From Candidatus Collierbacteria bacterium GW2011_GWB2_45_17 (GTDB lineage Bacteria > Patescibacteriota > Microgenomatia > UBA1400 > MFAQ01): a stretch of 64,000 nucleotides of DNA. Shown in pieces: positions 8,190 through 64,000 of this stretch. Both the position numbers and the translations under genes were made by a program. The stretch spans positions 47,567 through 111,566 of the forward strand of contig LCKO01000002.1 in assembly GCA_001001485.1 (NCBI GenBank), written 5' to 3'. Below the pieces are notes generated by a model. It was not told the DNA's origin. It was given only the letters and a program-made list of their open reading frames with translations, and did not search any database. Every line of letters starts with the position of its first letter. The stretch's first letter is position 1.

Positions 8190-11100
8190 ATGGCTGCCCC
8201 CAAATACTCTGTTTTACAGATTCGTCCCGCCAAAGACTCTCTTACCGGTCAGGCCGCCTTTATTGAATTTCTATCTTCCCTCAGAACTGCCCTAAAAGCC
8301 GGTTTTGTGGATCGACTTCTGGGGACTTTCGACACTATCTGTCTGGAAATAGTTAACCTAAACCAAACCACCTACTACATTCTTTCCTGTCCTGAACGTT
8401 TGGAACATCTGGTCCGTGCCCAAATCGCGGCTCAGTACCCAACGGCTTTGATCACGCCCATGACCGATTATCTATCCGACTGGCTGAGTCACGGACAGAC
8501 TTCTTTGGGTCAACTGGTTCTTACCGGACCATCTCATCTTTCCTTGAACAACACTTTGGACGACAAGGTCGACCAGATGGCTTCGATTCTAGGCAGTCTC
8601 GCTCGAATTCCGGCTGGACAAGCCGGAATTATCCAAATCTGTCTTTTTGCCGGACCCAAGAACTGGCAAAAAGCTGTCCGTTCTAGCCTTGAAATTGTTA
8701 CTCCGGCTACGGCTACCGATCCGGCCAAAAGTAAACCCAGTCCCTATAAAGCCATTATCGAAAAGAAACTAGCCTACCCTGCCTACGCTTGTGATATCCG
8801 CTTGGCCGCTATCACTCCAAATTTACACACCTCCATCCAGCTTTTGACACAGCTTGCCGCCGCTTTTGGCACCTATGCTCTTTCGGAAGGGAACAGTCTT
8901 GCTTTAAAAATTCCCAAATCTGCCGGATCTCTCGAAAAACTTCGTCGCATGATGATCGATCGTTCAGCCAAATACTCAAACCAATATCAGTACTTAAACT
9001 ATGGCGAGATAACCGCCATGTTTCACTTACCCGGTGTTTTATTGGCTCCCATCAAGGGAATTGCTTGGGGTAAGACCCTCAAGGGCGAAGCCCCGACCAA
9101 CTTGCCGGTCAACGAGGGTATCACGGCGAGCGAACAAAAACTTTATAATTTTTTCGCCGTCACCGAATACAAAAATCACTTAGCCGTCTTTGGTATGAAG
9201 AAGGGGATTGATCGTTTGCGACATACCTACATTCTAGGAAAGTCAGGTACCGGTAAATCTACCTTAATTGGCCATATGGCTATTAATGACATCCAACATG
9301 GAGAAGGGGTGGCTTTTGTAGATCCACACGGCGATGCCGCCGAAATTCTCTTAGACTATATTCCTGAAAGTCGTATTAATGATGTTGCTTATCTCGACCC
9401 GTCAGTTCCAGGAAAATCATTCTGGATGAATCCGCTTTTTGTCAAAACTCCGGCCCATGGGGAGATGGTCGCCTCGAGCATTGTTTCTATTTTTAGCAAA
9501 CTTTATGGTAATTCCTGGGGACCCCGTCTGGAATACATTCTCAGAAATACTTTATTGACCTTAGTTTACAAACCGGAAACCACCCTCGCCGATGTTCCCC
9601 GCATTCTTACCAATAAAGATTTTCGGGAGAAAGAATGCCTCATTCACGTCACCGATCCTGTCCTCATTAATTTCTGGCGGGATGAATACGACAAATACTC
9701 GGAAAAATTCCAGACCGAAGCTATCGCTCCTATTCTAAACAAAGTTGGTCAGTTTATTACCTCTCCGACTATCCGAGACATTATTAATCATCCCAAGAGT
9801 ACTGTCGATTTTGAGGCAATGATGAACGCCGGGAAAATTATTATTCTCAACCTTCCTCAAGGTAAAATCGGCGAAGACAACGCCGCCTTGCTTGGTGCTA
9901 TGTTCATTTCTCAAATTCAAATCGCGGCCATGAACCGAGCCAACATCAAAGAAGAAGATCGTCGTGAGTTTTTTCTCTATGTTGATGAATTTCAAAACTT
10001 TGCCACCAGCTCCTTTGTCAAAATTCTGTCCGAGGCTCGTAAATACAAACTTGGCTTAATTCTCGCCAATCAATATATTGCCCAACTGCCGGAAGACATC
10101 CAAAACGCGATTTTTGGTAACGTTGGTACCGTCATGAGTTACGTTATCGGGGCCTCCGACGCCGACCGCATCGTGAAGGAATTAAACAATCTCTATACCG
10201 CCGACGACCTTGTTGGACTGGCTAAGTACCAATTGGCTATGAAAATGTCTGTCGATTCCCAAGTCACCCAACCTTTCTCTGCCAACGCACTACCTCTGCC
10301 GGATACCTACATGCACACCAAGGAAAGGGTCTTAGAGGCGACTTACGCCAAATATTATCGCGAAACCAAACCGATGGACATGTCTCAAATCACTGCCCTA
10401 ATGACACCCCCTGCCAAGCGCTTCACCGAGCCGGCCTACGCCCCCAAAGCACTGAGGGAACCTTCAGCGATTGTTTCTCTTGAGGGCCAGGCCTTAGAGA
10501 ATCCTCAATCTGCAAGGCCTGGCCCTGCAGGTAAATCATCATTTCCGTCAAAGGCACCTTACGTGCCTCAGCTTCCCCCAATCATCCCCCGCACCCAACC
10601 CAACCCCTTCAAAATTCCTCCCTCCGGTAAATCTGTCATTCCGAGCAGAGTCGAGAGCGAAGCGCGGCAATCTATTCCCCAGGGCCAGGCCTTAGAGAAT
10701 CCTCAATCTGCAAGGCCTGGCCCTGCAGGTCTCTCTGACCCCTCCCTCGCCGACCTCGATGCTCTTCGCAAAGAAGGTCTCCGCCCCAGTATTGTCGGCT
10801 GTTTTCTAAACGATAAAAAAATTCTTCTGGCCTATCAAAAGTCTTTCAATCAATGGCTTTTGCCTCAGGGGGGAGTGGAAAACAAACAGAATATTAAAGA
10901 TGCCTTTTTTAAGGAACTTGCCGAAGAAGTCACCGACGACTTTCTCAAAACCTGCGACACCGACATTCAATTGGTCGCAGTTGATAAAATCGAATTTCCT
11001 CCCAGCAAGCAAGGTCTTCGCGACATGTCCACCGATTCGGGTGAACCCGTGGTGATGAAAGGCAAGTACTATTATTTTTTTGTGGCCAACTCCAAAAAAA

Positions 11101-14399: not shown

Positions 14400-14406
14400 C
14401 GTACTC

Positions 14407-14451
14407 GTCATCCTGAGCGAGCCTTCGCGAGCCGAAGGATCACACTCCACC
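14407..14451 (+). repeat. Family A mini-element copy A1 (gtcatcctgagcga..ccgaaggatcacactccacc), 7 nt after groEL stop
   Basis: GTCATCCTGAGCGA start and CACTCCACC end shared with copies at 52375 and 26854/27349/62870. Confidence 0.8.
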
Positions 14452-14824: not shown

Positions 14825-14846
14825 ACAAATGGCAATGGTAACAAAT

Positions 14847-16914: not shown

Positions 16915-17220
16915 TCGTTGCCAGCCTCACCCTTCCGGTAGGGCTTTTTCCTAGTCGGCACCAGCAATTTCTAGATAGTGTCTGCCGGATTCTTTTCTTT
17001 GACTCTAAATATCATTACTGAATCTGTGAAGGGTCGTAATTTGCTTGGTTTTTTTCTATCTCCAATTCTGGCAACTCCTGGAACAAAATCAATTTTTCCC
17101 CATTGCCACTCAACGGATTCTATAAATTCTAGACCCAAGCTTTCTCCAATTTTTTTCCATTCAGATAATGTATGGTTGCTGTGAGGATTTGTATCGTCAC
17201 TTTGTGAGTTCCATGTGTTA

Positions 17221-17733: not shown

Positions 17734-17793
17734 ATTTGAGATGATTTTACACCTTCTGTGCTAAAGTTTAAGTAGTTACATATTTCTGCCCAC

Positions 17794-18885: not shown

Positions 18886-18937
18886 CAGCTGGAACCGAAG
18901 CAAATTGCATGATGAATCTCAAGTAAAATAAGTATTA

Positions 18938-19654: not shown

Positions 19655-19671
19655 GAGAAAAATCCAAATCT

Positions 19672-19744
19672 GAGGCCGGAGCGGGAATTGAACCCGCGCA
19701 TAGAGGTTTTGCAGACCACCGCGTTACCACTTCGCCATCCGGCC
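19672..19744 (-). tRNA. tRNA-Cys (anticodon GCA)
   Basis: Reverse complement folds as cloverleaf: acceptor GGCCGGA/TCCGGCC, T-arm GCGGG-TTCAATT-CCCGC, anticodon loop CTGCAAA; short D-arm; one T.T mismatch in anticodon stem. Confidence 0.8.
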
Positions 19745-19791
19745 GTAACTAACACGCACTATTTTAACATTTTCTGATACACTAGGATATT

Positions 19792-20682: not shown

Positions 20683-20687
20683 GTCAC

Positions 20688-20722
20688 GTCATTGCGAAGT
20701 CGCTTAAGCGACCGCGGCAATC
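20688..20722 (+). repeat. Family A mini-element copy A2 (gtcattgcgaag-TCGCTTAAGCGA-ccgcggcaatc), 6 nt after stop of upstream gene
   Basis: Internal 12-nt perfect palindrome; same architecture as 25169 copy. Confidence 0.8.
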
Positions 20723-20740
20723 TATACAGATTTTCCTAAA

Positions 20741-20776
20741 CTTGAGTTCTTGATTCCTAGAGTTCTAGAGTTCTTT
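20741..20776 (+). repeat. Family B repeat copy B2 (cttgagtt cttgattc ctagagtt ctagagtt cttttt), intergenic, adjacent to A2
   Basis: Four degenerate 8-mers read directly. Confidence 0.8.
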
Positions 20777-20777
20777 T

Positions 20778-21707: not shown

Positions 21708-22741
21708 AGTACGAAAACCAACATTAGTATAACCAATCCTATCATGATGAAGAGCTTACTTCTAGCCTCAAACTTCACTGCCGCTACTCCCAAGATAGCC
21801 GTCACCAGCCAATAAAATAAAGCCACTCTCCTCTTTCCCCAGCCCATCTCCAGTAATTTATGATGCAGGTGCCCCTTGTCTCCCCAGACCGGAGACTTTC
21901 CGGAAGCCACTCTCTTGATCGTTAGATAAATAAAGTCGATCAAAGGTACTCCCAATACTACCAGCACAGTGCCCACTTTTGCCGTGGCTAAAATTGAGAT
22001 CACTCCCAAAAGCAAACCGGCCAATGACGTCGCCGAGTACCCGGGCATAATTTTCTGCGGATAGAAGTGAAATACGGTTAGTCCTGCAAAAGCTCCGGCT
22101 AGAGCGAAAGCCAGCGTCGCCACCGGCCATTGGGTAATATCGGCGCTGTAAGTCAGAGATATTATTCCCACGATCAAAGCGGCGATCATTACCACCCCGC
22201 TAATTTGGCCATCGACTCCGGAGGACCAGTTTATCGCGTTCATCAAAATTGGGATCCACAACAGCGCAAACAGGTCGGCCAAAATCCAGATCTCATGATG
22301 TCTACCCAGCAGGTCGAAACCAATTCTTGGTTGAGATAGATCAATAATTCCGCCAAAGGGATTGGAAATAAAAGCGATACCAATCCCCGAAGCCACGATA
22401 ATTCCCACCGCCAAAAAATTAACGGCTAACCTTAGATATGGATTCATTCCTCGGACATCATCGATGAGGCCGGCCACTACGGTGATACCGGCCGCCAAAG
22501 CAATCGCAATTAAATGTTTATCCAGCTTCAAAAGAAGAGCCATGGTCACAAATACTGCCAAGAAAATTGCCAAACCACCGCCCTTAGGCACCGGCACATT
22601 ATGAATATGAGCCGGATGGGGGCTTTTCTTAGGGTCGATGACAAAACCCATTTTTGTAAAAAACCAAATAGTTAAAGGTGTAACCATCAGACTAAGTAGT
22701 AAGGAAATAAAGAAGGGCAAAAAAGTAATTAATGGATTCAT
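21656..22741 (-). CDS. Glycosyltransferase family 4, MraY/WecA-like polyprenyl-phosphate sugar-1-phosphate transferase
   Basis: MraY/WecA-like multi-TM topology with cytoplasmic DD..R (LIDDVRG) motif. Confidence 0.7.
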   Translation of the reverse strand: MNPLITFLPFFISLLLSLMVTPLTIWFFTKMGFVIDPKKSPHPAHIHNVPVPKGGGLAIFLAVFVTMALLLKLDKHLIAIALAAGITVVAGLIDDVRGMNPYLRLAVNFLAVGIIVASGIGIAFISNPFGGIIDLSQPRIGFDLLGRHHEIWILADLFALLWIPILMNAINWSSGVDGQISGVVMIAALIVGIISLTYSADITQWPVATLAFALAGAFAGLTVFHFYPQKIMPGYSATSLAGLLLGVISILATAKVGTVLVVLGVPLIDFIYLTIKRVASGKSPVWGDKGHLHHKLLEMGWGKRRVALFYWLVTAILGVAAVKFEARSKLFIMIGLVILMLVFVLWQYSWRYSKRSAPDNG

Positions 22742-23073
22742 AGACCAATAATTATCTGTATAACTCTGAAAAAACTAGCCGCCGCCAAGATTACGGCCAC
22801 CAGCCCTCCCGTCATGATGGCAATCTCCACCGGAACATCCTCTTTGCTGGCCCATCGGGCAATCGCTCGAGTCATATAAAGCGAAGCAACCAAGCCTATT
22901 ATCACTCCAATCAGAGTTAATTTACCCACCAACTGTTGTTCACCTGAAGGCAAAGAGTAAAACCAGGGAACTTGTGGGGGGAGAGCTTTCCAAAACCAGG
23001 CCAAGGTCAGTCCCATGAGAACAATGACTATCTCACCAGTCAAAAAAATTTTCTTCACGGTCTTATTTTTCAT
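22738..23073 (-). CDS. Small membrane protein (DUF2304-like, often paired with GT2)
   Basis: 111 aa, 3 TM segments, 4-nt overlaps with flanking GT genes suggest operon. Confidence 0.35.
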   Translation of the reverse strand: MKNKTVKKIFLTGEIVIVLMGLTLAWFWKALPPQVPWFYSLPSGEQQLVGKLTLIGVIIGLVASLYMTRAIARWASKEDVPVEIAIMTGGLVAVILAAASFFRVIQIIIGL

Positions 23074-24578
23074 TAAACTTTTTTAGTTGTTACTCTGTAC
23101 TCCATATATCTTCCCATCATCAGACGGGTATGGGCATCGAGACCCGGCAGAGCCGAAAAGAAAAAGCCCACCACCGGTAGCAGAATAAATTCAAAGGGTG
23201 CTAATATTTTTCTCCATACAGGTAAGTTCGTTACTTTTGGTCTGGTTTTTAAATCTATCAATATCATTGCCATCAAGCTGATTAAAGACATGGTCAGGAT
23301 AGCCGAAGATACCTGAGGCAGGGTTTTCCCGATCACGGTTCTGGAAAAAGTCGGATTCAAAAGTGGCGGCATATTCGCTCCTACTGTAATGATGAACCAG
23401 TGAACCGGCCACATAAAATGGTCCTCCATTACCTTAAAAACTCTGATTGTCTTGTCCCAAAAAGGCGCTTCATCATCCAAGATATATCTCTTGATAATGT
23501 AAGCATCATCGCTCGCCCCCCACGCCCATCTTTTTACTTGTTCATAGGTATTGGTGTAAGTGCTCCAGAATCCATTGGCTTCCGCCGCATCGGCCGAAAC
23601 CGAAATAAAGAGCGGCTCTACCTCTACCTCCCCCTTGGTCGCAAAATAGGTTTTAAAGAAAATCCGGTAATCTTCGGGGATGACATCGGTATCCCAGTAG
23701 TCAATCTCATTCATCAATCTCAAACTCAAGGTATAAGTGGAAAAATTTATCAATCTATCGGGTCTCGATAGCTGAGCCATATAAATGACACTACTCATCC
23801 TATTAAATACTCTCATCGGCCAAGGAATTCTTTCAATATTGTTATAAAAAACAATCGCTCCCTGCCAAATCTTCTTGTATCTGTTTGGATCATCGAGGAA
23901 AGAATAGGTCAGCGCCGCCAAATGATTAGGATGCAGAGCCACATCGCAGTCCACCGAAGAGATGGTTAGCTTGTCTATATTCCAATCTCTGTGTTTGTTC
24001 AGTTCTTTCCGGAACTCTTTGCCTACCCATGAGGCATTGCTGGACTTACCCACCACTTCCCCCTCCAGATTGGCTGGATGATAGGTAAAAAATAAACTGG
24101 CAAATGTATCCTTAAATTTTTCTTTGAGCAACTTTTCTCTTTCCGAGTTTATCTCTGCCCCGGCTCTCTCTTCAAAACCTATTATTGGAATAATTTGTTT
24201 GGGACCAATCGTTTGTTTCTTTAACGCCTCCAAGGTTCTTTGTAGAATCTCCCCCGGTTCTTTGAAGGTCGGTAAGACAATCACGTGTTTTACCTCTTTC
24301 CAGTCCGCAAAGCCAAAGACATCTCCCATCCAGTCATACTTTTCCCAAGCCTTTATCCGGTAATAAGACATTACCCCCGCCCAGGCCAAAGACGCCGATC
24401 GGTAAAGCCAGTAGACGTTGAAGGCGATAATGAAGTAGGCGACGCCAATCGGCCAGAAAATCGACCCCCAGATGGGGAACAAAATAAATGTCCAGCTGGT
24501 TAGTCCGGGCAGAATCTCCAAAGCTCTTTGGCTCCCGTTTGGATATCTTTTGATTAAATATCTAAGGAATATAAACAT
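23073..24578 (-). CDS. Membrane-bound glycosyltransferase family 2-like protein
   Basis: N-terminal TMs, GT-A-like core (VLPTFKEP..DCDVALHPNHL), C-terminal TMs. Confidence 0.55.
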   Translation of the reverse strand: MFIFLRYLIKRYPNGSQRALEILPGLTSWTFILFPIWGSIFWPIGVAYFIIAFNVYWLYRSASLAWAGVMSYYRIKAWEKYDWMGDVFGFADWKEVKHVIVLPTFKEPGEILQRTLEALKKQTIGPKQIIPIIGFEERAGAEINSEREKLLKEKFKDTFASLFFTYHPANLEGEVVGKSSNASWVGKEFRKELNKHRDWNIDKLTISSVDCDVALHPNHLAALTYSFLDDPNRYKKIWQGAIVFYNNIERIPWPMRVFNRMSSVIYMAQLSRPDRLINFSTYTLSLRLMNEIDYWDTDVIPEDYRIFFKTYFATKGEVEVEPLFISVSADAAEANGFWSTYTNTYEQVKRWAWGASDDAYIIKRYILDDEAPFWDKTIRVFKVMEDHFMWPVHWFIITVGANMPPLLNPTFSRTVIGKTLPQVSSAILTMSLISLMAMILIDLKTRPKVTNLPVWRKILAPFEFILLPVVGFFFSALPGLDAHTRLMMGRYMEYRVTTKKV

Positions 24579-25411
24579 TTTGTATTTTGGCTAGTGATTT
24601 CTGCCAATTTAGGCAGGTCTAAGTTGAGTTCGGTAGCGACAAACTCAGCTATTATTTTAACATTCGCGGGTATGTTCACCGTCCCACGAAGCGGTTCTGG
24701 CGCTAAATATGGGCTATCCGTCTCCAGCAGTAACCTGTCCAAAGGCACCCTCCTCAGTAGTTCTCTCAGGTTCCCGGCCGTTTTGTAGGTAATGTTTCCA
24801 CAAAAACTGACGTAAAAACCTCGCTCCAGTATCATTTCCAAAAATTCCTCACTCCCGGCAAAACAATGAAATTGCCCCCGTAGGGGCGCATCGCGATGCG
24901 CCCGCCTAAAATTATCCAATTCATCCCTCATCTCCTCCTCCGCCTCCCGCATATGGATCGCCACCGGCAGATTATTCTCCACCGCGAGCTCCATTTGCCT
25001 CCTAAAAAGCTCTATCTGTTTTTCTTTCGTCTTTTTCTCTTTATCGTAGAAAAAATCCAGCCCTATCTCTCCAATTCCCACTACCCTCTTCGAACTTTTT
25101 ATTATTTCCTCTAATTCACCAATTACAACATCTGTCATTCCGGCCAGCGAGCCGGAATCCATCCCATCGTCATTGCGAGGTCGCCTAGGCGACCGTGACA
25201 ATCCATATAAATCTTCAACATTTTCCGGGTGAATCCCCACCAGGCAATACTGCTGATATTTCTCAGCAATCTCCACCGCCAGTTTGGCATCTTCTACACT
25301 GGTCGAGGGAAAGATCACTCTCTCCACTCCGGCTTCTTGGGCCCGCTTCAGCACCTCCCCAATGTCCGAGAATCTCCTGTCCGTCAGATGACAATGCGTA
25401 TCGATTAACAT
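24554..25411 (-). CDS. tatD: TatD-family metal-dependent DNase/hydrolase with in-frame tandem mini-element insertion
   Basis: MLIDTHCHL start, GIHPEN, GEIGLDFFY, ETDSPYL; 25-aa insert LSRSPRRPRNDDGMDSGSLAGMTD encoded by two family-A elements. Confidence 0.85.
   Translation of the reverse strand: MLIDTHCHLTDRRFSDIGEVLKRAQEAGVERVIFPSTSVEDAKLAVEIAEKYQQYCLVGIHPENVEDLYGLSRSPRRPRNDDGMDSGSLAGMTDVVIGELEEIIKSSKRVVGIGEIGLDFFYDKEKKTKEKQIELFRRQMELAVENNLPVAIHMREAEEEMRDELDNFRRAHRDAPLRGQFHCFAGSEEFLEMILERGFYVSFCGNITYKTAGNLRELLRRVPLDRLLLETDSPYLAPEPLRGTVNIPANVKIIAEFVATELNLDLPKLAEITSQNTKCLYSLDI
25134..25159 (+). repeat. Family A mini-element copy A3a (gtcATTCCGGccagcgagCCGGAATc), in-frame in tatD
   Basis: 8-bp inverted arms read directly. 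Confidence 0.8.
25169..25203 (+). repeat. Family A mini-element copy A3b (gtcattgcgagg-TCGCCTAGGCGA-ccgtgacaatc), in-frame in tatD, tandem with A3a
   Basis: Internal 12-nt perfect palindrome; near-twin of 20688 copy. Confidence 0.8.
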
Positions 25412-26827
25412 TTATTTCTCAATTCTCTGGAAAAGGTTTTCCCCTCGTTTAATTTCTTCTTTACCAAATTGCGCCATCAGCTTCTCGGCCGTCTCCGGCA
25501 TAAAAGGCACCATATCTGCCGCAATTTGCCGAATAATTCTCACGAGGTCCGTCAAGACAAACTCTTGATCTTCCCCCGTCAGTTTCCAAACTTCTCTCTG
25601 ATTAATTAAAGAGTCCGCCTTCTTCACGTCTTCCCAGATAAATTTCAAGGCTTCGTCAAATCTAAAGATCTTTAATTTATCCACCACTTCCTGGCTGATC
25701 TCCATTTTTTGTTCGGGCACCTTCAAACTGATCTTCTCGGCCATAGTCGCCACTCTCGCCGCCAAATTTCCGATACCATTGGCGAGATTCGTTTGGTACG
25801 CCTCTTCAAATCTATCAACAGTCACATCCGAATCTTCAAAAACACTCACTTCGGACAAGAGAAAATATCTCAAGGCATCCGCCCCATACTTCTCCGCCCA
25901 CTCCAGCGGATTAATCGTATTTCCAAGGCTCTTGCTAATTTTTTGCCCACCGGAAGTCAAAAACCCTCCTACCAAAACTTGCTTTGAAGTGGGCAGATCG
26001 GCCGACATCAGCATCGCTTGCCACATGGCTGTTTGTTGCCGGAGATTATCTTTGCCGCACACTTGCACCCCCGGCCAAAATTCCTTAAACCTTTTCGTAT
26101 TTTCTGGCCAGCCAAGGCATGAGATATAGTTCACCAGAGCATCAAACCACACGTAGATTATTTGTGTTGGGTCTCCGTGCACTTCTATTCCCCAGGGCAT
26201 TTTAGATTTGAGTCTCGATATCGAAAAATCCTGCAGACCTCCCTCTATAAAGATTCTCATCTCATTCTGTCGGAAATCGGGCATGACGAAATCGGGCTGT
26301 GCTTGGTAAAGACCCAGCAGTTTCTGTTGATAATTCGAAAATCTAAAGAAATAATTTTCCTCCTCGATATTTTGGAGTTTCTGAGTCGGATGTAGAGGAC
26401 ACTTCCCCTCCTCCAGCTCGGAATCGGTTTTTTCCAGCTCGCACCCCACGCAGTATTTTACTTTGTAAGTTTTTTTATAAATATCTCCCTTAGCTTCACA
26501 CAGTTTCCAAAACTCCTGCGCCGCTTGAATATGGTGCTCATCGGTTGTTCTGACAAAGTTGTCATATGACAAATTTAGCCCGGTTTTTAGTTGGCCAAAC
26601 TTGGCCGCATTCTCATCACAGTAGGCCTTTGGCTCTTGCCCCGCCTCCACTGCCATTTGATAAATCTTCTGCCCATGCTCATCCGTGCCGGTATTAAAGA
26701 AAACTTCGTCCCCCAAAGCTCGATGCATTCTGGCCAGAACGTCGGCTCTGATTATCTCCATCGCAAAACCAATATGCGGTTCGGCATTTACGTAGGGTAA
26801 GGTGGTGGTGATATAAAACTTTCCCAT
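25412..26827 (-). CDS. metG: Methionyl-tRNA synthetase (short form)
   Basis: PYVNAEPHIGF (HIGH region), KISKSLGN (KMSKS), 471 aa. Confidence 0.9.
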   Translation of the reverse strand: MGKFYITTTLPYVNAEPHIGFAMEIIRADVLARMHRALGDEVFFNTGTDEHGQKIYQMAVEAGQEPKAYCDENAAKFGQLKTGLNLSYDNFVRTTDEHHIQAAQEFWKLCEAKGDIYKKTYKVKYCVGCELEKTDSELEEGKCPLHPTQKLQNIEEENYFFRFSNYQQKLLGLYQAQPDFVMPDFRQNEMRIFIEGGLQDFSISRLKSKMPWGIEVHGDPTQIIYVWFDALVNYISCLGWPENTKRFKEFWPGVQVCGKDNLRQQTAMWQAMLMSADLPTSKQVLVGGFLTSGGQKISKSLGNTINPLEWAEKYGADALRYFLLSEVSVFEDSDVTVDRFEEAYQTNLANGIGNLAARVATMAEKISLKVPEQKMEISQEVVDKLKIFRFDEALKFIWEDVKKADSLINQREVWKLTGEDQEFVLTDLVRIIRQIAADMVPFMPETAEKLMAQFGKEEIKRGENLFQRIEK

Positions 26828-26853
26828 TTCCCCATTTTACCCCAATAAACCCC

Positions 26854-26898
26854 GTCATTGCGAATCTCGTACTCGAGCTGTGGCAATCTCACTCCACC
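26854..26898 (+). repeat. Family A mini-element copy A4 (gtcattgcgaatctcgtactcgagctgtggcaatctcactccacc), fills metG / trpR-like intergenic gap and abuts stop codon at 26898-26900
   Basis: Shares both termini with 27349 and 62870 copies. Confidence 0.85.
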
Positions 26899-27260
26899 TA
26901 TCTGAATATCTTCTTTATCCCCCCTGTTATCTTCTCCGTCCAGTCACTGGCCCACTCTTCAGCCTTTATTCTCCTGATCATCTCTTGCCAGCCTGAGTTC
27001 CCCAAATTTTCCGCTACCGTGGCGATGGTGGCTGAGCTAACCTTAATATTATTTTTGATGTCTTCGTAGTTTCGGCCTTTATCAAGATAAAGTGCTATTC
27101 CCAGCCTTTTTATTACCGCCGTTCTCTCCCCCTCAGTTAGGACGTCACAGAGAACAGTCTTCAAGTCCTCCGGCGAGTCAATCTCTGCCAGTACCTGGTA
27201 AAACATCTGGTCTAACTGCTTCTCCAACGTCTTGTTAATTGGATTTTGTGAAACTTGCAT
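26898..27260 (-). CDS. TrpR-like (YerC/YecD family) small HTH protein
   Basis: 120 aa; HTH-like segment resembling Trp-repressor-like family; moderate. Confidence 0.4.
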   Translation of the reverse strand: MQVSQNPINKTLEKQLDQMFYQVLAEIDSPEDLKTVLCDVLTEGERTAVIKRLGIALYLDKGRNYEDIKNNIKVSSATIATVAENLGNSGWQEMIRRIKAEEWASDWTEKITGGIKKIFR

Positions 27261-27269
27261 ATTTCTGTC

Positions 27270-27319
27270 CTAAATAATAACCCTGCCTGCCGGTTTACCC
27301 GCCGTGGTGGGCAGGCAGG
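27270..27319 (-). terminator. Hairpin (cctgcctgcc-N18-ggcaggcagg) downstream of minus-strand membrane-protein gene, possible terminator
   Basis: 10-bp perfect stem read directly; U-rich-ish tract follows on minus strand. Confidence 0.35.
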
Positions 27320-27348
27320 TCTTTAATTAATTAAACCACACCTACATC

Positions 27349-27391
27349 GTCATTGCGAGGAGGTATTCCGACGTGGCAATCTCACTCCACC
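27349..27391 (+). repeat. Family A mini-element copy A5 (gtcattgcgaggaggtattccgacgtggcaatctcactccacc); 3' end supplies last codons and stop of gene 27382..27744
   Basis: 41/43 nt identical to lepA-internal copy at 62870. Confidence 0.85.
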
Positions 27392-27744
27392 TCTTTTTTC
27401 GGCCTTGTCTTCATCAAATATATTTCCAAAGAAATCAAGAGCCCCAGTATCAGCACCCCATTCATCACCGACCCTAGTCCCAAAACTCTCATTTGTAGAA
27501 ATGCCGTTATCCCAAGAGTCCATCGCAATGCTGCTTGAGCCGACATCAGCAAGATAGACAACAGCCAAAAAATGCCTCCCATCACGAGCATCATCATCGG
27601 AAAATAACTTCCGGGAATAATCATATTTTTCATTGTCTCCGGATCCACTTTCCAAACGACGAAGCCAATCACCAACCAATTCAACACCGCAAAAAACACC
27701 AACCATCCATATCTCTTCTTCTGTCGGTGTTTGTTTACTTCCAT
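27382..27744 (-). CDS. Small multi-TM membrane protein (120 aa)
   Basis: 3 hydrophobic helices; preferred over overlapping alternative frame 27350..27706. Confidence 0.4.
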   Translation of the reverse strand: MEVNKHRQKKRYGWLVFFAVLNWLVIGFVVWKVDPETMKNMIIPGSYFPMMMLVMGGIFWLLSILLMSAQAALRWTLGITAFLQMRVLGLGSVMNGVLILGLLISLEIYLMKTRPKKEVE

Positions 27745-27776: not shown

Positions 27777-28760
27777 ATGTCTTCCGATACCCTGATCATT
27801 GTTTCCTTCCTCGCCATCGGCCTGCTTTTAGTTTACCTTCTTCTCAAACAGAAGCTCGAAGCTCAGAAAACCGATCCGACTCTCAACGCTTGGCTCAAGT
27901 CCCTCCAGCAGTCTTTCGACACGACGAACCGTACCACCAACGCCTCTCTTCAGCAAAACTACCGCGAGCTCTTCGCCCGTCTCGATCAGGCTACCGCCGT
28001 CATTAGTGACCTCAAGAAAGAAGCCGGCGCCTTCGGCGAGGTCAGCCGCTCCATGAAAGATCTCCAAGATTACTTGAAGTCTCCCAAACTGAGGGGCAAC
28101 ATCGGTGAACAAGTCCTCAAAGACCTCATCGGCCAGATGTTCCCCAAAAATAGTTTTCATCTTCAATATCATTTTAAGGATGGCTCCATCGTCGATGCCG
28201 CCATCAAAACTCAAGCCGGCATCCTTCCGATCGACTCCAAGTTTCCCATGGAAAACTTCCAAAAAATCTACTCGGCAACTTCGGCTACCGACAAAGCCGC
28301 CGCTCGCAATGCCTTCATTCGCGATGTCAAAAAACACATCAAAGATATCTCCGGCAAGTACATTCTGCCGGAAGAAGGCACTCTCGACTTTGCACTTATG
28401 TACATTCCCTCAGAAACCATTTTTTACGAGATAGTCAACGAACAAGAGCTTATGGATCTGGCCCGCGACTCCCGTGTCTATCCTGTCTCGCCCACCACTC
28501 TCTATGCCCACCTTCAGACCATTCTTCTGTCTCTCGAAGGCCAGAAAATCGCCGGCAAAACCTCCGAAGTTTTTACTCTCCTAAGAGCCGTTCAAAAAGA
28601 CTACGAAAAGCTCAACGAAAACTTTGTTCTCATGGGTAAACACCTAACCAACGCCTACAACTCTTTAGGTAGTACCTCCCAAACCATGAACCAGATCGGC
28701 ACCAAGCTCGACTCCGCTCGCCAGCTCAAAACCGGCCTCCTAGAGGATACAGAGATATAA
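27777..28760 (+). CDS. rmuC: DNA recombination protein RmuC
   Basis: N-terminal TM, long coiled-coil, C-terminal RmuC block (ILPIDSKFP..LMYIPSETIFYEI). Confidence 0.8.
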   Translation: MSSDTLIIVSFLAIGLLLVYLLLKQKLEAQKTDPTLNAWLKSLQQSFDTTNRTTNASLQQNYRELFARLDQATAVISDLKKEAGAFGEVSRSMKDLQDYLKSPKLRGNIGEQVLKDLIGQMFPKNSFHLQYHFKDGSIVDAAIKTQAGILPIDSKFPMENFQKIYSATSATDKAAARNAFIRDVKKHIKDISGKYILPEEGTLDFALMYIPSETIFYEIVNEQELMDLARDSRVYPVSPTTLYAHLQTILLSLEGQKIAGKTSEVFTLLRAVQKDYEKLNENFVLMGKHLTNAYNSLGSTSQTMNQIGTKLDSARQLKTGLLEDTEI

Positions 28761-28769
28761 TATATAGAA

Positions 28770-45766: not shown

Positions 45767-47740
45767 TCACCAGCTGTCAATATCTTCAAAATCGTCTTTA
45801 ACCGCCTCCTCAATCTCCCAATCCTGCACAATAATCCTCTTTTTTTCCCCAAATTCATCAAAACCGTCATTGCGAGACGTAGGGGTTTGATTTATCAAAC
45901 CCGTTCGGCGTGGCAATCCAGTGTCTTGAGTTCTTGGGTTCTTGATTTCTTGAGTTCTTTGGATGTTCTCATCCGATATCTCGGATAAAAACCTTGACGG
46001 TATCGATTGATGCCTCCCCCCAAAACTAAGTCTTGATCTGGCCCACGAAAGGGTCAGATTCTCTTTTGCCCTGGTCATGGCCACGTACATGAGTCTCCTT
46101 TCTTCCTCGATCTCTTCTTTACCGCCCTCAAACATCGAGCGGGAGTGGGGGAAAAGCCCCTCTTCCAAGCCCACTACAAAAATCTCGGGAAACTCCAGCC
46201 CCTTAGCCGCGTGCACTGTCATCAAAGTCAGCTTTGCGTTTGATCGGTGTTGTTTAATCTCCGACTCCGAAAGAGCCGCGCTTTCCAAAAATAGCGCTAC
46301 ACTTTCGTACTCTCCGGCCACTGCCAACAGCTCGTTTATATTTTCGATTCTTGCCACATCTTCCTCATCCCTCTCATCAAATCTTTCCATGTAATTAATC
46401 AAATTAATTATTTCCTCCAATAGAGGTCCCGGTCGCCCTTCACTCCTTCTCTTATCAGAAAGTCTCCCGAACCATTCATCAAAAATGGCGGCTTTTCTTT
46501 TTCCGATTTTTTCAATTCTCTGCCGGCTGATTTCCTCACCCGGGTTGTGAATTAGTCGTAAATAGGCGATCAAGTCTTTTACCTCCGCTCGATTATAAAA
46601 CCGCAGTCCGCCAATCAACTTGTAGGGAATATCCCGTCTTAACAGTTCATCTTCAAACGCACGGGACTGGGCATTTGTTCGATAAAGAACTGCTACTTCC
46701 TCCCCCCGGTCACCGATTTTTTTAGATTGATCCACCACATATCTTGCTTCGTCTCTTTCATCCAGGGCTTCAAATAAATTAACTTTTTGACCCATCTCTC
46801 TGGTTGCCGAAAGTTTTAAAGTCGGATGATTAGTATTATTGCTCACCACCCCATAAGCCGCGTCCAAGATATACTGGGTGCTCCGATAATTCTTAGGCAG
46901 TCCGACCGTGGTTAGTTCGGGGTAAGTTTCTTCCAGCAGTCTCAAATTTCTATAATCTGCCCCTCTAAAAGAGTAGATGGCTTGGGCGGCGTCTCCCACC
47001 GCCGTAATATTTCGTTTTTCTCCGGCCAGCAACTTTGTCAGTTCAAACTGAGCTTTGTTGGTGTCTTGATACTCATCCACCAGTATCCACTCAAGTCGGT
47101 CGTTTACCTCTTTTCTAATCCTGTCGATTTCTAACACTTTCACCGCCTTAACCAGCAAATCATCAAAGTCCACCGCGTTGTTCCGAACCAGTCTACTCTG
47201 GTACTCACTCCAAACTTTATTAATCTGCCGGTGAAAATAATCTCTCGACACGTTTTCGGCCTCTTTTAAAGTTACCAAATCGTTTTTCATCTTACTGATC
47301 ATGGCCAAAAACATCCCCGGTTTGTTTTGCTTCGGGTCAATAGAGAGATCTTTAAGCACCTTTTTCATCACGGACTCGGAGTCTTGACTATCAAAAATTA
47401 CAAAATGGGGGCTCACTCCGACCTCCACTCCGTAGTTTCTCAGCAGTTTGGCGCAAAAAGTATGAAAAGTACCGGAAAATCCCAGATCAATCTTTTTGCC
47501 CGCCGAATTGGATGGTTTTGTGCCGATCTTTTTGATTCTTTCTTTCATCTCACCGGCCGCTTTATTGGTGAAAGTTAACAAGGCTATTTTCGTTGGGTCG
47601 ACATTTTTTTCTTTGATCAACCATGCCACTCGGTGGATCAGCACTCTTGTTTTTCCCGAACCTGCTCCGGCCAGAACCAAAAGAGGACCTTCTCCATGAG
47701 TTACCGCCACCAGCTGTTCTTTATTGAGAATATCTACCAC
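45767..47740 (-). CDS. ATP-dependent DNA helicase PcrA/UvrD/Rep family (C-terminal tail carries in-frame A+B repeats)
   Basis: AGAGSGKT Walker A, LVDEYQDTN, VGDAAQAIYSFRGA motif III intact, 657 aa. Confidence 0.9.
   Translation of the reverse strand: MVDILNKEQLVAVTHGEGPLLVLAGAGSGKTRVLIHRVAWLIKEKNVDPTKIALLTFTNKAAGEMKERIKKIGTKPSNSAGKKIDLGFSGTFHTFCAKLLRNYGVEVGVSPHFVIFDSQDSESVMKKVLKDLSIDPKQNKPGMFLAMISKMKNDLVTLKEAENVSRDYFHRQINKVWSEYQSRLVRNNAVDFDDLLVKAVKVLEIDRIRKEVNDRLEWILVDEYQDTNKAQFELTKLLAGEKRNITAVGDAAQAIYSFRGADYRNLRLLEETYPELTTVGLPKNYRSTQYILDAAYGVVSNNTNHPTLKLSATREMGQKVNLFEALDERDEARYVVDQSKKIGDRGEEVAVLYRTNAQSRAFEDELLRRDIPYKLIGGLRFYNRAEVKDLIAYLRLIHNPGEEISRQRIEKIGKRKAAIFDEWFGRLSDKRRSEGRPGPLLEEIINLINYMERFDERDEEDVARIENINELLAVAGEYESVALFLESAALSESEIKQHRSNAKLTLMTVHAAKGLEFPEIFVVGLEEGLFPHSRSMFEGGKEEIEEERRLMYVAMTRAKENLTLSWARSRLSFGGRHQSIPSRFLSEISDENIQRTQEIKNPRTQDTGLPRRTGLINQTPTSRNDGFDEFGEKKRIIVQDWEIEEAVKDDFEDIDSW
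45866..45919 (+). repeat. Family A mini-element copy A6 (gtcattgcgagacgtaggggtttgatttatcaaacccgttcggcgtggcaatcc), in-frame in helicase tail
   Basis: GTCATTGCGAG..TGGCAATC termini with internal hairpin gggtttgat-ttatcaaaccc. Confidence 0.75.
45925..45960 (+). repeat. Family B repeat copy B3 (cttgagtt cttgggtt cttgattt cttgagtt cttt), in-frame (RTQEIKNPRTQD), adjacent to A6
   Basis: Read directly; same frame usage as tsaD copy. Confidence 0.85.
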
Positions 47741-51680: not shown

Positions 51681-51704
51681 AAAGAAGTGTATAATCCCTT
51701 CCTT

Positions 51705-51729
51705 GTCATTCCCGACCTGATCGGGAATC
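51705..51729 (+). repeat. Family A mini-element copy A9a (gtcATTCCCGAcctgaTCGGGAATc), intergenic
   Basis: Perfect 8-bp arms. Confidence 0.8.
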
Positions 51730-51754
51730 TATATAAATAATCCATATTTGGGAT

Positions 51755-51779
51755 GGATCCCCGCATTCGCGAGGATGAC
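51755..51779 (-). repeat. Family A mini-element copy A9b in opposite orientation (rc: gtcatcctcgcgaatgcggggatcc), intergenic
   Basis: Read as reverse complement; forms inverted pair with A9a 25 bp away. Confidence 0.7.
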
Positions 51780-51792
51780 AAATCGTGTATTG

Positions 51793-53052
51793 TCATCTAT
51801 TTTTCATATCTTCTATAACTGCTTTTGCCACCTCATTCCCCATTTTGACCGCGTAGTTGGTTCCCCTGTCAAACGGATAAACCATACTCATATTAGCGAG
51901 GTATACTCCCGCAATCGACGTCCTCATGTCTGGAAGCCTTGAAGAGTAGTTTATCGGAAAGACCGGCTGGGCAAAAGGCTCTCGAAAGAGGTAACTGCCT
52001 TTAACTTGATTTTTCTTGAAACCATGATTTATTTTTTTTAAAAAAGGAGAATAAATTTTTAACAGCTCTTCCTTAGTCATCTCTAGCTGTTCGTCACCTT
52101 CCGGCAGATAGTTCCCGAGATACACCAGGACGTTTCCTCCATAATATTTTTTGTCAATCATGTTGGTATGTTCCACCACCACCAGAAAGGGCCATTTATC
52201 CTCCAGTATGTTTAGCCAATAACCCCGAATAAGTTTTTTAGAAAGTTCCAAAATTAACGTTTGTCCCCACAGATAATCTAATTTCGGAAAATCGATTCTC
52301 GGAACCATCTTCTTAATGATCGGCGCCGGTACAGTCATCACCACCACCTCAAACCTCTCCCCATTCACCAACATGTCATCCTGAGCGAAGTCGAAGGATC
52401 TCACTTCACTATTCACTCTCACCTTTCCCCCTTTCCTTTCTATACTCTCCACCATTTTCTCCACCAAACCACCAAACCCTCCCTCAAAATATCCCAATCT
52501 TTGTGTTCTTTTGGCCACTCGGCTCCAAAACCACGCCATGTTAACCTGCTTTACAAACGGTCCAAACTTAGCGGTTAACAATTTTTTCCAAATCGTTTCG
52601 TAACCGCCTCTGCCCAAAAGTTTCGGAAGAAAATCCACCACTTGATACTTTTCTAGAAATAAGCCATCGGGAATTATTTTTAGCACTGTCAAACCCAAAC
52701 CCATCCGAACTCTCTCCCCCAAACTTATTCCCGAAAATCTCAACAAAGACAGTGGAGAGTCTAGCTGGATTTCTTGGTTGTCAATATAACTACTGGTTAC
52801 CGGACTATTTATCTGCACTGGACAGTTCACCTTCTCGGCTAACTGGATAATCTCCTTATCGTTTGTAAAAACATGATGATAAAAGCTCTCCAAACTCCAC
52901 TTCCATTTAAAGTTTCCCAAAAACCCCGCCGCCAGCCCTCCACACTTATCACTAGCTTCGAAAATCGTCACTTGAAATCCTTGATCCACCAAACTTAGTG
53001 CACAAGCGAGACCGGTAAAACCTCCACCAATAATAGCGATCTTTTTCCTCAC
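51793..53052 (-). CDS. FAD/NAD(P)-binding amine-oxidase-like oxidoreductase (protoporphyrinogen/phytoene-desaturase-like fold)
   Basis: N-terminal Rossmann KIAIIGGGFTGLACAL..EASDKCGG; carries in-frame A8 insert (RSFDFAQDDM). Confidence 0.65.
   Translation of the reverse strand: MRKKIAIIGGGFTGLACALSLVDQGFQVTIFEASDKCGGLAAGFLGNFKWKWSLESFYHHVFTNDKEIIQLAEKVNCPVQINSPVTSSYIDNQEIQLDSPLSLLRFSGISLGERVRMGLGLTVLKIIPDGLFLEKYQVVDFLPKLLGRGGYETIWKKLLTAKFGPFVKQVNMAWFWSRVAKRTQRLGYFEGGFGGLVEKMVESIERKGGKVRVNSEVRSFDFAQDDMLVNGERFEVVVMTVPAPIIKKMVPRIDFPKLDYLWGQTLILELSKKLIRGYWLNILEDKWPFLVVVEHTNMIDKKYYGGNVLVYLGNYLPEGDEQLEMTKEELLKIYSPFLKKINHGFKKNQVKGSYLFREPFAQPVFPINYSSRLPDMRTSIAGVYLANMSMVYPFDRGTNYAVKMGNEVAKAVIEDMKNR
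52375..52404 (+). repeat. Family A mini-element copy A8 (gtcatcctgagcgaagtcgaaggatctcac), in-frame in oxidoreductase
   Basis: Same head as 14407 copy. Confidence 0.8.
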
Positions 53053-62336: not shown

Positions 62337-64000
62337 ATGTCCAACTCAACTCGAAACTTCTCTATTATTGCTCATATTGATGCCGGCAAATCTACTTTGG
62401 CAGATCGTATGTTGGAAATCACCGGTACTGTTCAGGCGGACAAAATAACCCCCCAACTTCTGGATAGCAACCCTATCGAGCGCGAACGGGGAATCACCAT
62501 CAAACTAGCCCCAGTAGCCATGAGCCACAAGGGTTATACTCTCAATCTCATTGATACTCCAGGCCATGTAGATTTTAATTATGAAGTTGAGCGTGCTCTC
62601 CAGGCCTGCGAAGGCGCCCTACTACTAGTAGATGCCACCAAAGGGGTTCAGGCTCAAACTGTCGCCAATCTCCGTCTAGCCAAGAATCTTGGCCTTACCA
62701 TTATTCCGGTCGTCAACAAAATCGACGCCCCCCTAGCCAACACCTCTGCCGCTATTCGTCAGTTAAAACAACTTTTAAATATCGATATCGAACCATTTCT
62801 GGTTTCCGCCAAAACCGGAGAGGGAGTCAAAAATCTATTAGACCACATCATCTCCGACCTCCCTAGTCCGTCATTGCGAGGAGGTACACCGACGTGGCAA
62901 TCTCACTCCACCCACCCCTTCCAGGCCCTCGTCTTCAACTCCACCTTCGATATCCATCTGGGAGTCATTGCCTTTGTCAAAATCGTTTCCGGAGACCTTC
63001 ATCATGGCGATAAACTGGAGTTTCTAAACTCCGGCCAGTCGCTGACTGCTTCCGAAATTGGCATTTTTTCGCCCGGAAGAACCGAAAAAAAGATCATTGC
63101 CTCCGGTAATGTCGGCTATATCATCACCGGCTTGAAAGATATTCGCCGAGTTTTGGTCGGGGACACCCTCTGTCTTTCCACCCAGATAAAACAGGTCAGC
63201 CCCATACCCGGCTTCCGAAAAATTCACCCCAACGTTTTTTTGGATCTCTACCCGGCCGAGGGTTCACAGTACCGGGATCTGGTCGATGCTTTGGAAAAAT
63301 TAAAACTTAATGATTCTTCCCTCACCACTCAAGGCATCAACTCTCCCATTCTCGGCCAAGGTGTCAAGGTGGGTTTCCTGGGGATGCTTCACGCCGAGGT
63401 GGTGGGTGAGCGACTGGAAAGAGAGTTTGGTCTGCCGGTCATCTCCGTTTCTCCTTCGGTAGAGTACAAAGTTCAGCTCCGTTCCGGTGAAGAAAAATGT
63501 TTTAGTTCTCCGACCGACTTTCCAGATCCGGCTGTAATTACCAAGAGTTACGAACCCATGGCCGCGGTCAACATCGTGGTGACCTCACCCTACGTCGGTG
63601 CCGTCATGGAACTCTGTCAGGATCTGCGAGGCAGTCTGGTCAACGTTTCCTACCTTGATGAGTTAGTCGAGATCGATTATTTCCTACCCCTAATCGAAGT
63701 TATCACCACTCTTCATGACAGCCTCAAAAGTGTTTCTCAAGGCTTTGCTTCCATGGACTACGAACTTTCCGGTTGGCAGGAGGCCGAATTAGTTAAACTT
63801 GATGTCCTCCTCAATCACGAACTCTTCACCCCCATGAGTGTTATAACGGTGAAAGAAAAAGCTTACTACAAAGGCAAAAGAATTTCCGAAAAACTTAAAG
63901 AAGCTATTCCTCGTCAGCAGTTTGAGATCCCTATTCAGGTGGCTATTGGTGGCCAGATCATCGCTCGAGAAACTATCAAGGCTTACCGTAAAGATGTCGA
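62337..64000 (+). CDS. lepA: Elongation factor 4 (LepA), runs off the window end; contains in-frame family-A insertion
   Basis: NFSIIAHIDAGKSTLADR G1 motif, DTPGHVDF, NKID; insert SLRGGTPTWQSHST at 62870-62912. Confidence 0.9.
   Translation, partial: MSNSTRNFSIIAHIDAGKSTLADRMLEITGTVQADKITPQLLDSNPIERERGITIKLAPVAMSHKGYTLNLIDTPGHVDFNYEVERALQACEGALLLVDATKGVQAQTVANLRLAKNLGLTIIPVVNKIDAPLANTSAAIRQLKQLLNIDIEPFLVSAKTGEGVKNLLDHIISDLPSPSLRGGTPTWQSHSTHPFQALVFNSTFDIHLGVIAFVKIVSGDLHHGDKLEFLNSGQSLTASEIGIFSPGRTEKKIIASGNVGYIITGLKDIRRVLVGDTLCLSTQIKQVSPIPGFRKIHPNVFLDLYPAEGSQYRDLVDALEKLKLNDSSLTTQGINSPILGQGVKVGFLGMLHAEVVGERLEREFGLPVISVSPSVEYKVQLRSGEEKCFSSPTDFPDPAVITKSYEPMAAVNIVVTSPYVGAVMELCQDLRGSLVNVSYLDELVEIDYFLPLIEVITTLHDSLKSVSQGFASMDYELSGWQEAELVKLDVLLNHELFTPMSVITVKEKAYYKGKRISEKLKEAIPRQQFEIPIQVAIGGQIIARETIKAYRKDV
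62870..62912 (+). repeat. Family A mini-element copy A7 (gtcattgcgaggaggtacaccgacgtggcaatctcactccacc), in-frame in lepA
   Basis: 41/43 identical to intergenic copy at 27349. Confidence 0.9.

Follow-up and report, generated by a model that had tools for sequence, protein, structure and literature searches.

The window, by which we mean the whole stretch of 64,000 nucleotides (nt) from Candidatus Collierbacteria bacterium GW2011_GWB2_45_17 that was analysed, contains twelve copies of a small palindromic DNA element. Judged by the published description of such repeats (tag, stem start, tail, position and intragenic units), these elements are members of the CGTC-tagged superfamily of repetitive extragenic palindromes (REPs). 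The copies lie just past stop codons or in frame within conserved genes, are gained and lost between related genomes, and in Collierbacteria-type genomes are oriented by DNA strand and not by transcription. We hold identity and behaviour, taken jointly, with high confidence, and consider the whole statement, which adds a likely mechanism (mobilisation of the hairpin as single-stranded DNA), to be probable. The Candidate Phyla Radiation (CPR) host, the extended tails and the strand polarity are new; the kind of element is not. Coordinates are relative to the first letter of the window, and + is the strand shown.

REPs were divided into two superfamilies by an unpaired tag, GTAG or CGTC (Di Nocera, De Gregorio & Rocco, 2013; BMC Genomics 14:522; PMC3733652). 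CGTC REPs tolerate TGTC or CCTC as the tag, have stems that almost always begin A-T, T-A, carry a short unpaired tail (CCA) and lie mostly downstream of coding regions; classes CGTC-1 to CGTC-4 have a stem of 8-9 bp and a loop of 4-5 nt (PMC3733652). In-frame intragenic units encoding short peptides are known, most of them in Rickettsia conorii, and there is no associated transposase (PMC3733652). Two of the Rickettsia palindromic elements (RPEs) were assigned to these classes (RPE-4 is CGTC-4, RPE-6 is CGTC-1), as was the dRS3 repeat of Neisseria (CGTC-1). The hosts listed there belong to five phyla and include no CPR bacteria, and the authors considered that further classes with bulges had probably escaped them (PMC3733652).

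All twelve copies were found at the starts given in the original prediction, by which they are named here (10635, 14407, 20688, 25134, 25169, 26854, 27349, 45866, 51705, 51755 on the reverse strand, 52375 and 62870; Table 1). They share a single form, (C/T)GTC + AT-xyz ... z'y'x'-AT + C-tail. Of the tags, seven are CGTC and five TGTC, and all lie outside the predicted stem. All twelve stems open with the pairs A-T and T-A, and the next three pairs complete one of three outer-stem types (ATTGC/GCAAT, ATTCC/GGAAT or ATCCT/AGGAT), which bears out the earlier claim that several sub-families co-exist. Plain 8-bp hairpins are predicted for 25134 (loop of 6 nt), 51705 (loop of 5) and 51755 (loop of 4); in the remaining nine, a 5-bp outer stem leads through a conserved GAG / G(T/C)G mismatch region to an inner hairpin that varies between copies. 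An unpaired C follows the stem in all twelve, and the tail begins CCA (4 copies), CTC (4), CTA (3) or CAC (1). A tail on a subset of copies had been noticed earlier: tail 1, CTCACTCCACC or a near variant, follows five copies (14407, 26854, 27349, 52375 and 62870). A second tail had been missed, as had the pile-up of copies at hot spots and the strand polarity. Tail 2, C(T/C)ATAYARATYTTC (C(T/C)ATAYAGATTTTC-like), follows three copies (20688, 25169 and 51705). Collierbacteria tails are extended to 11-14 nt (CTCACTCCACC or CTATAYAGATTTTC).

Points of likeness to CGTC REPs are the (C/T)GTC tag, the A-T/T-A stem start, the C tail (CCA in four of the twelve), the position mostly after coding regions, the in-frame intragenic units, the lack of a linked transposase and an inverted dimer at 51704-51780. 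The elements differ in their CPR host, in their tails of 11-14 nt and in a strong single-strand polarity within the window, orientation being a property that was not examined in PMC3733652. CGTC REPs also occur predominantly as inverted (head-to-head, HH) dimers, whereas the window holds mostly singletons or head-to-tail copies (one inverted dimer, one head-to-tail tandem in tatD and eight singletons); this trait is descriptive and is no criterion of the superfamily.

The original prediction likened the elements to RPEs, and rightly so: RPE-4 and RPE-6 are likewise small palindromes in frame in conserved genes, where they add short surface peptides. Its implication of novelty, that the elements differ from any RPE it recognised, is not supported, as the description matches CGTC REPs, including RPE-4, RPE-6 and dRS3 (PMC3733652). 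The equation with RPE-4 and RPE-6 is made through that published description and not by alignment with R. conorii elements. Rickettsiales loci (L202, L207 and L233) contain the core GTCATTGCGAG...GGCAATC as in the window type. RPE-1, at ~100-150 nt, is far longer and unrelated in sequence. The dRS3 pattern is ATTCCC(N8)GGGAAT, and dRS3 is the target of the Nf1 prophage (PMC3898611); copy 51705 in the window reads GTC-ATTCCC(N9)GGGAAT-C, and in a viral contig locus (L020) canonical dRS3 units stand beside the TTGC type in the same GTCAT...ATC frame and orientation. However, dRS3 forms large intergenic mosaic arrays that serve as Nf prophage integration targets, and nothing comparable is present in the window.

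A search pattern derived from the window, GTCATTGCGAG...GYGGCAATC, was run on viral contigs and representative genomes; the matches listed are a lower bound. They come from Alpha-, Beta-, Gamma- and Deltaproteobacteria, Bacteroidota, Firmicutes, Chloroflexi, Planctomycetes, Nitrospirota, Armatimonadota, Zixibacteria, Melainabacteria, many CPR lineages and viral contigs. The matches reach genera that were used to define CGTC REPs (Micavibrio, Sphingobium, Sphingopyxis, Novosphingobium), and also Rickettsiales. The tag-outward dimer arrangement of 51705 and 51755 recurs in Micavibrio, Sphingopyxis, Mucilaginibacter and Berkelbacteria loci. The repeat family is little studied and apparently pan-bacterial, its hairpin core being present in most bacterial phyla. 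A search of the CPR literature for REPs found none, and a literature search by literal 11-13-mers of the elements returned primers only; the host group appears to be new for CGTC REPs.

Copies are in excess of expectation. The motif GTCATYSC occurs 18 times in the window, compared with 7.1 +/- 3.3 in shuffled sequence, and 18 was reached by none of 100 shuffles. A pattern of GTCAT, a 5-bp arm and the complement of that arm matches 23 times over both strands (shuffles, both strands: mean 9.5, maximum 17). This pattern picks up nine of the twelve named copies, all nine on the + strand, and misses 10635 and 25169 (imperfect arms) and 51755 (4-bp match). The excess over shuffles consists of the recognisable copies, and the other arm-pattern matches look like background. 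We regard as negligible the probability that the copies are chance matches or ancestral protein segments. About four relaxed GTCAT-anchored hairpin matches are expected per 64 kb, but the named copies have tag, covarying stems and tails in common, related copies number in the thousands elsewhere (the family is abundant in other genomes and contigs among the matches listed), and close orthologues of the host genes do not have the segments; orthologue and filled/empty-site comparisons refute this explanation.

Covariation was assessed in 78 distinct metagenomic copies among the matches listed, found with a pattern that did not demand pairing at the three variable outer positions. These three pairs are complementary in 74 of the 78, with five pair types, against an expectation of about 1 in 8; GTC is preceded by C in 59 copies, by T in 18 and by A in one. 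Near-identical copies include a compensatory swap, ATTGC/GCAAT to ATCGC/GCGAT, with the interior unchanged. An inner stem of 5 bp or more is present in 36% of copies and in 5% of shuffled interiors. Predicted with DNA parameters, the GTCAT strand folds better than its complement in 143 copies versus 58 for CPR, 263 versus 31 for genomes and 231 versus 35 for viral contigs (matches listed). C-GNA-G triloops, which are unusually stable DNA mini-hairpins, are found 76 times on the GTCAT strand and nine times on the complement among the matches listed. Together these results make a case for a strand-specific folded form.

Six copies lie within open reading frames (ORFs) and keep the frame, as originally stated: two in tatD and one each in lepA, an amine-oxidase/FAD gene, the pcrA tail and the linker of a T4CP-like ATPase-NUDIX fusion. 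Four of the six are antisense to the host gene, and copies after minus-strand genes are mostly antisense too. The GTCAT strand contains no stop in any of its three frames, whereas one frame of the complement is closed by a TGA (from ATGAC) and, where tail 1 is present, so is a second (GTGAG). In tatD (24554-25411, minus strand) the element is present as two head-to-tail units, GTCATTCCGGCCAGCGAGCCGGAATC and, after nine bases, GTCATTGCGAGGTCGCCTAGGCGACCGTGACAATC (25134-25203), which together read GLSRSPRRPRNDDGMDSGSLAGMTD in frame. TatD orthologues of 256-260 aa are without the insert, and the window protein is 25 residues longer, in agreement with the 25-aa loop proposed earlier. The extra residues stand between a helix ending at 68 and a helix starting at 90. 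The AlphaFold model has a mean predicted local distance difference test (pLDDT) of 87, and because pLDDT is below 50 at residues 73-88, the insert is predicted to be a disordered loop on a confidently modelled TIM barrel. LepA at its element is nine residues longer than Thermus EF4, for which there is a solved structure. The short TatD orthologues and EF4 lack the residues, and related copies abound elsewhere, so that both refuting conditions set with the original prediction fail, which favours its reading; the insert-free relatives show that the inserts are lineage-specific. Predicted insert-junction peptides are ...VEDLYGLSR and ...SLAGMTDVVIGELEEIIK for TatD and ...GGTPTWQSHSTHPFQALVFNSTFDIHLGVIAFVK for LepA. 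The PcrA copy is located beyond the last conserved helicase block; this copy, 10635 and the amine-oxidase/FAD copy are all in open frames. Intragenic copies persist only where the frame is kept, in disordered loops, linkers or tails.

Many TatD orthologues carry other inserts, both in this loop and in a second one. The insert peptides (RVKPGMT, PRNDD, LAGMT, PRFARNDE and ENLYRF) are translations of the element family and tail 2. On a TatD tree built from conserved columns, filled and empty states alternate between sisters, which requires six or more gains or losses at site 1; at site 2, three or more clades carry an insert. Recurrent insert peptides of this kind (…RVKPGMT, …PRNDD, …LAGMT, SLRGG…WQS) inflate 'hypothetical protein' calls and disturb CPR marker-gene alignments.

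The claim of recent turnover is supported by a comparison with a 790,768-bp Collierbacteria contig (which includes locus L333) that is syntenic with the window at about 86-89% identity. Copy 26854 is missing at the orthologous L333 site, and the tatD-metG junction, empty in the window, holds two elements with tails in the 790-kb contig. At the tatD hot spot the window has two elements and the contig three: the first is identical in both genomes (L333 has the same copy as 25134 in the same place), the second differs in its interior, and the third, which carries the shared tail 2, looks like a founder. The inner palindrome GGTCGCCTAGGCGACC occupies tatD site 1 in the window and site 2 in the contig. 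Copy 27349 in L333 contains an exact 24-nt nested insertion with no target duplication. The groEL copy is common to the window and a related genome (L280), and a lepA that is 86% identical (L258) lacks the lepA copy. Copies are thus gained and lost between genomes about 87% identical, on a short time scale. Copies tend to land beside or within existing copies, leaving no target duplication.

Pile-up of this kind would also be expected if the elements were recombination or target sites for a site-specific recombinase (IS110/Piv-type or other) or a phage, with clusters as scars of integration and excision; dRS3 is such a prophage target (PMC3898611), and the family is common on viral contigs among the matches listed. 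We think this very unlikely. There is no recombinase or prophage in the window, the filled sites hold elements alone, and the spread of hundreds of tag- and tail-conserved copies into housekeeping genes would be left unaccounted for. A classical miniature inverted-repeat transposable element mobilised by a DDE transposase was also considered and rejected: there is no duplicated flank at the filled/empty sites or the nested insertion, and the ends are asymmetric (tag versus tail).

Orientation is strongly biased. Eleven of the twelve window copies are on the + strand, yet genes of both strands host them. When the window is divided into 32 consecutive 2-kb blocks, GC skew is negative in 31, whatever the gene strand, so that the + strand is C-rich throughout. 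Genomes of Collierbacteria, Beckwithbacteria and Ch65 were reported to have one strand C-rich over the entire chromosome; this strand carries the rRNA genes, and largely unidirectional replication was proposed (Kadnikov et al., 2020; PMC7143001). Given this chromosome-wide skew, the uniform skew along the window was already known for the clade. Metagenome contigs were scanned for the tail-1 subfamily, giving at least 110 loci, and polarity was counted in the 87 listed loci that are 3 kb or longer and in which one orientation prevails. In 85 of these 87 the prevailing orientation is that of the C-rich strand, on which 300 of the 328 copies lie. The result is the same where coding is mostly on that strand (39 loci), mostly on the opposite strand (16) or mixed (32). 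Ten loci of the 790-kb contig have 46 versus 4 copies by orientation. That repeat orientation goes together with the strand asymmetry of the clade is, as far as found, new.

These orientations bear on the possibility that the elements are primarily functional RNA hairpins past stop codons (an mRNA 3' stabiliser, processing site or translation attenuator, as for E. coli REPs) that were spread by selection, which we consider unlikely. The six intergenic window copies are all within 13 nt of a stop codon; the original prediction had given 0-10 nt, which is true of 14407 (7 nt) and 20688 (5 nt) and fails for 51755 (13 nt). Copies in L320 are in sense orientation between ribosomal-protein genes, and for REPs in general a position mostly downstream of coding regions and effects on mRNA stability and translation have been reported. 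However, six window copies are within ORFs, four of them antisense to the host, and orientation tracks the DNA strand, not transcription. Closeness to a stop is nearly unavoidable, because intergenic spacers are very short in this genome. The groEL copy is followed by a separate strong intrinsic terminator (14462-14497), and no element scores as a terminator: the elements lack T runs, and no terminator-like site coincides with an element in 14000-27600. Rfam gave no match at the elements at gathering or permissive thresholds.

Turning to mechanism, we suggest that the element may be a non-autonomous DNA hairpin which an enzyme provided in trans recognises and moves in single-stranded form, as HUH/Y1 transposases act on GTAG REPs and IS200/IS605 ends. 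Insertion or survival would be coupled to the asymmetric replication of the clade, and any RNA-hairpin effect just past stop codons would be secondary. Drawn from analogy, mobilisation as single-stranded DNA is a tentative proposal, to which we give somewhat less than an even chance. GTAG REPs and REPINs (REP doublets forming hairpins) with their REP-associated tyrosine transposase (RAYT; TnpA-REP, HUH/Y1), as well as IS200/IS605 ends, likewise have a small hairpin whose foot carries an unpaired, guide-like tetranucleotide; they leave no target duplication, and their in-frame intragenic copies are known. A replication-linked orientation bias of IS200/IS608 has been attributed to single-stranded DNA at the fork (PMC3971601). 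They differ in that the guide is GT[AG]G, compared with (C/T)GTC here, and the window has no RAYT or Y1_Tnp-like ORF. A REPtron-like arrangement was sought around the oppositely oriented copies in L320 and L281 and rejected, the genes there being ribosomal-protein and housekeeping genes. The stronger proposition, that CGTC REPs of the Collierbacteria type are currently mobile single-stranded DNA hairpins whose orientation is written by unusual, largely unidirectional replication, seems to us doubtful. If it were true, the mover should be among few host or phage proteins, as the genomes have ~800-1,000 genes and no recognisable mobile-element genes.

An origin that needs no dedicated enzyme is distinctly unlikely in our view. 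The copies would then arise by template switching, hairpin-primed synthesis or gene conversion during unusual, possibly unidirectional replication, and polarity would mark the hairpin-tolerant strand. The lack of a transposase in the window and in the literature on CGTC REPs fits such an origin, as do the extreme strand asymmetry of the clade and the hypervariable interiors, which may be the only difference between orthologous copies (the second tatD element; 12 nt at 10635). In the latter case the L327 orthologue is canonical (GTCATTGCGAGCGAAGCGCGGCAATC) and the window copy is 12 nt longer, which explains its 'hybrid' arms. Against this origin, elements with different stems, at unrelated sites and in different phyla have the conserved unpaired tag, the internal GAG/GYG mismatch motif and the 11-14 nt tails in common. 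Matching copies also stand at non-homologous sites (the 51705 core is identical in L320, and the 27348-27391 and 62869-62912 copies are 90% identical).

Several observations weigh against the main reading as a whole, in which CGTC REPs are moved as single-stranded hairpins and tied to replication. Pfam calls on the ORFs of the 64-kb window identified no transposase, integrase, Y1/HUH, IS110, recombinase or prophage, and the literature links no transposase, HUH protein or recombinase to CGTC REPs. The window genes are housekeeping genes (groES/EL, metG, tatD, gap, pgk, tpiA, pcrA, lepA and tsaD, with cell-envelope proteins and the T4CP-like ATPase-NUDIX fusion). Nine of the twelve copies have composite interiors that exceed the 8-9 bp stem and 4-5 nt loop of the published classes; the composite type also occurs beside short units in Micavibrio, Sphingopyxis and Rickettsiales. 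In other phyla 52% of copies in the listed genome loci are on the C-rich strand and inverted dimers are frequent, and because orientation and skew are not linked there, the polarity claim is limited to the Collierbacteria-type set. The replication strand is contradictory. Leading strands usually have more G than C, and GTCAT would therefore be on the lagging strand. Yet the spc/alpha ribosomal-protein operon (L320) and groESL are on the same C-rich strand as GTCAT, and the strand of such highly expressed genes is normally the leading one; assignment from highly expressed genes was rejected, as it contradicts the usual skew rule. Polarity could also reflect selective survival rather than oriented insertion. 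Finally, gene strands in the listed loci come from an ORF heuristic, and these loci are the matches listed, not a random sample.

The findings extend a little-studied repeat family to the CPR and show that repeats reshape loops of essential proteins (TatD, LepA, PcrA and TsaD-adjacent repeats) in extremely streamlined genomes. They are of value for how broad the family is, for sites that are cleanly filled or empty, for the hot spots within essential proteins and for the strand polarity. Repeat orientation provides an independent marker of strand asymmetry in Collierbacteria, Beckwithbacteria and Ch65, and tiny CPR proteomes with many recently moved copies narrow the search for a CGTC REP mover. 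If the elements are mobile single-stranded hairpins, their orientation would test the unidirectional-replication hypothesis independently, and the mover could be found by phyletic profiling.

Table 1. The twelve element copies of the window, named by start position. D5, D9 and D14 are repeat families.
Copy	Coordinates	Strand	Tag	Stem, interior and tail	Location and in-frame reading	Repeat family
10635	10634..10678	+	TGTC		T4CP-like ATPase/NUDIX linker, ORF 8190-11435, sense, reads VIPSRVESEARQS	
14407	14406..14451	+	CGTC	ATCCT/AGGAT stem; tail CACACTCCACC	7 nt past groEL stop	
20688	20687..20735	+	CGTC	ATTGC/GCAAT stem; inner palindrome GTCGCTTAAGCGAC; tail CTATACAGATTTTC	5 nt past stop of ORF 19792-20682; then degenerate CTTGAGTT octamers	D9
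25134	25133..25168	+	TGTC	8-bp stem ATTCCGGC/GCCGGAAT; 6-nt loop; tail CCA...	tatD, antisense, reads DSGSLAGMT	
25169	25168..25216	+	CGTC	inner palindrome GGTCGCCTAGGCGACC; degenerate 3' arm GACAAT; tail CCATATAAATCTTC	tatD, reads EDLYGLSRSPRRPRND	D9
26854	26853..26898	+		tail CTCACTCCACC, overlapping stop of Trp-repressor-like gene	between Trp-repressor-like gene and metG	D14
27349	27348..27391	+		tail = last codons and TGA stop of adjoining ORF	end of ORF 27382-27744 (minus strand)	D5
45866	45865..45924	+		longest; 53-nt core; inner hairpin GGGGTTTGAT/ATCAAACCC; tail CCA	PcrA/UvrD C-terminal tail, antisense, reads GLPRRTGLINQTPTSRND; octamer repeats directly after it	
51705	51704..51742	+		simple, dRS3-like; ATTCCC(N9)GGGAAT; tail CTATATAAATAATC	left half of inverted dimer, tags outward	
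51755	51741..51780	-	TGTC	8-bp stem ATCCTCGC/GCGGGGAT; 4-nt loop; tail CCA	right half of inverted dimer; 13 nt past stop of amine-oxidase/FAD gene	
52375	52374..52409	+	TGTC	short; ATCCT/AGGAT stem; tail CTCACTTCAC	amine-oxidase/FAD gene 51793-53052 (minus), reads RSFDFAQDD	
62870	62869..62912	+			lepA, sense, reads SLRGGTPTWQSHST	D5

Two further sites may be minimal or decayed copies. One, at 49714-49725 on the minus strand, is GTCATCGCGATC, a tag with a loop-less palindrome, and adjoins the third AGGGCCAGGCC palindrome; the other is GTCATCTGAGA...TCTGAGATC at 2015-2048, within tsaD. Arrays of related units were observed in other contigs. An IMG/VR contig of 13,155 nt (L037) has 17 co-oriented CGTC-type units in 13 kb, arranged as head-to-tail arrays of ~40-nt period between minus-strand genes, and L014 has three units with an exact 54-nt period. 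In two viral contigs (L065 and L075) a second TGCGAG...CGTGGCA unit is nested in the loop of the first, which recalls the small dispersed repeats (SDRs) of cyanobacteria. SDRs, a subject of work by Elhai and colleagues in 2008, are reportedly 21-27 nt long, share a hairpin with compensatory changes, insert into one another and lie near short tandem repeats. They differ from the window elements in sequence and host, and only a behavioural resemblance is claimed.

Tandem octamers (CTTGAGTT) form three arrays of 3-4 units in the window, all on the + strand, at 2391-2422, 20740-20775 and 45925-45958. The first is in frame in tsaD (…EKTQELKNSRTQDIENFYDI…), near an apparent tail-2 remnant, and the last is translated in the PcrA tail. 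We considered whether the octamers are part of the element and rejected this: two of the three window arrays adjoin a copy, but none of the 21 exact arrays in other loci do.

A second palindromic family, AGGGCCAGGCCTT...AAGGCCTGGCCCT with a 13-bp stem, was identified at 10483-10532, 10681-10730 and 49665-49714, in each case on the + strand. Two of its copies are 100% identical, 198 nt apart and both translated in the T4CP-NUDIX linker (GQALENPQSARPGPAG, twice); the third is between convergent genes. A third palindrome, CCTGCCTGCC...GGCAGGCAGG with the loop GGTTTACCCGCCGTGGTG, is present at 27282-27319 and absent at the orthologous L333 site. The motifs GCCTGCC...GGCAGGC and CCCGCC...GGCGGG, nested in CGTC elements of L260, L270 and L276, resemble it.

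The window is identical to a groundwater metagenome contig. Over 20 kb shared with LCIM01000006.1 (GW2011_GWB1_45_35) there are one substitution and three indels, at 23099-23144 (46 nt), 17651-17720 (70 nt) and 15357-15414 (58 nt). The indels were examined as possible mobile copies, and none is a repeat element; two of the three alter ORF lengths and may be strain variants or assembly errors.

Three other loci are of interest. A segment of ~2 kb at 28760-30830, in place of which L333 has ~330 nt, encodes a 279-aa ORF without a Pfam match and a DNA (cytosine) methylase, and may be a restriction-modification islet. The minus-strand gene at 30818-34906 encodes a 1362-aa UvrD-type helicase / PD-(D/E)XK nuclease with Hint and Intein_splicing matches, and probably contains an intein. 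Another minus-strand gene, at 37940-39013, combines an N-terminal LexA-type DNA-binding domain with UDP-glucose/GDP-mannose dehydrogenase domains, which is either an unusual fusion or the result of a start called too early.

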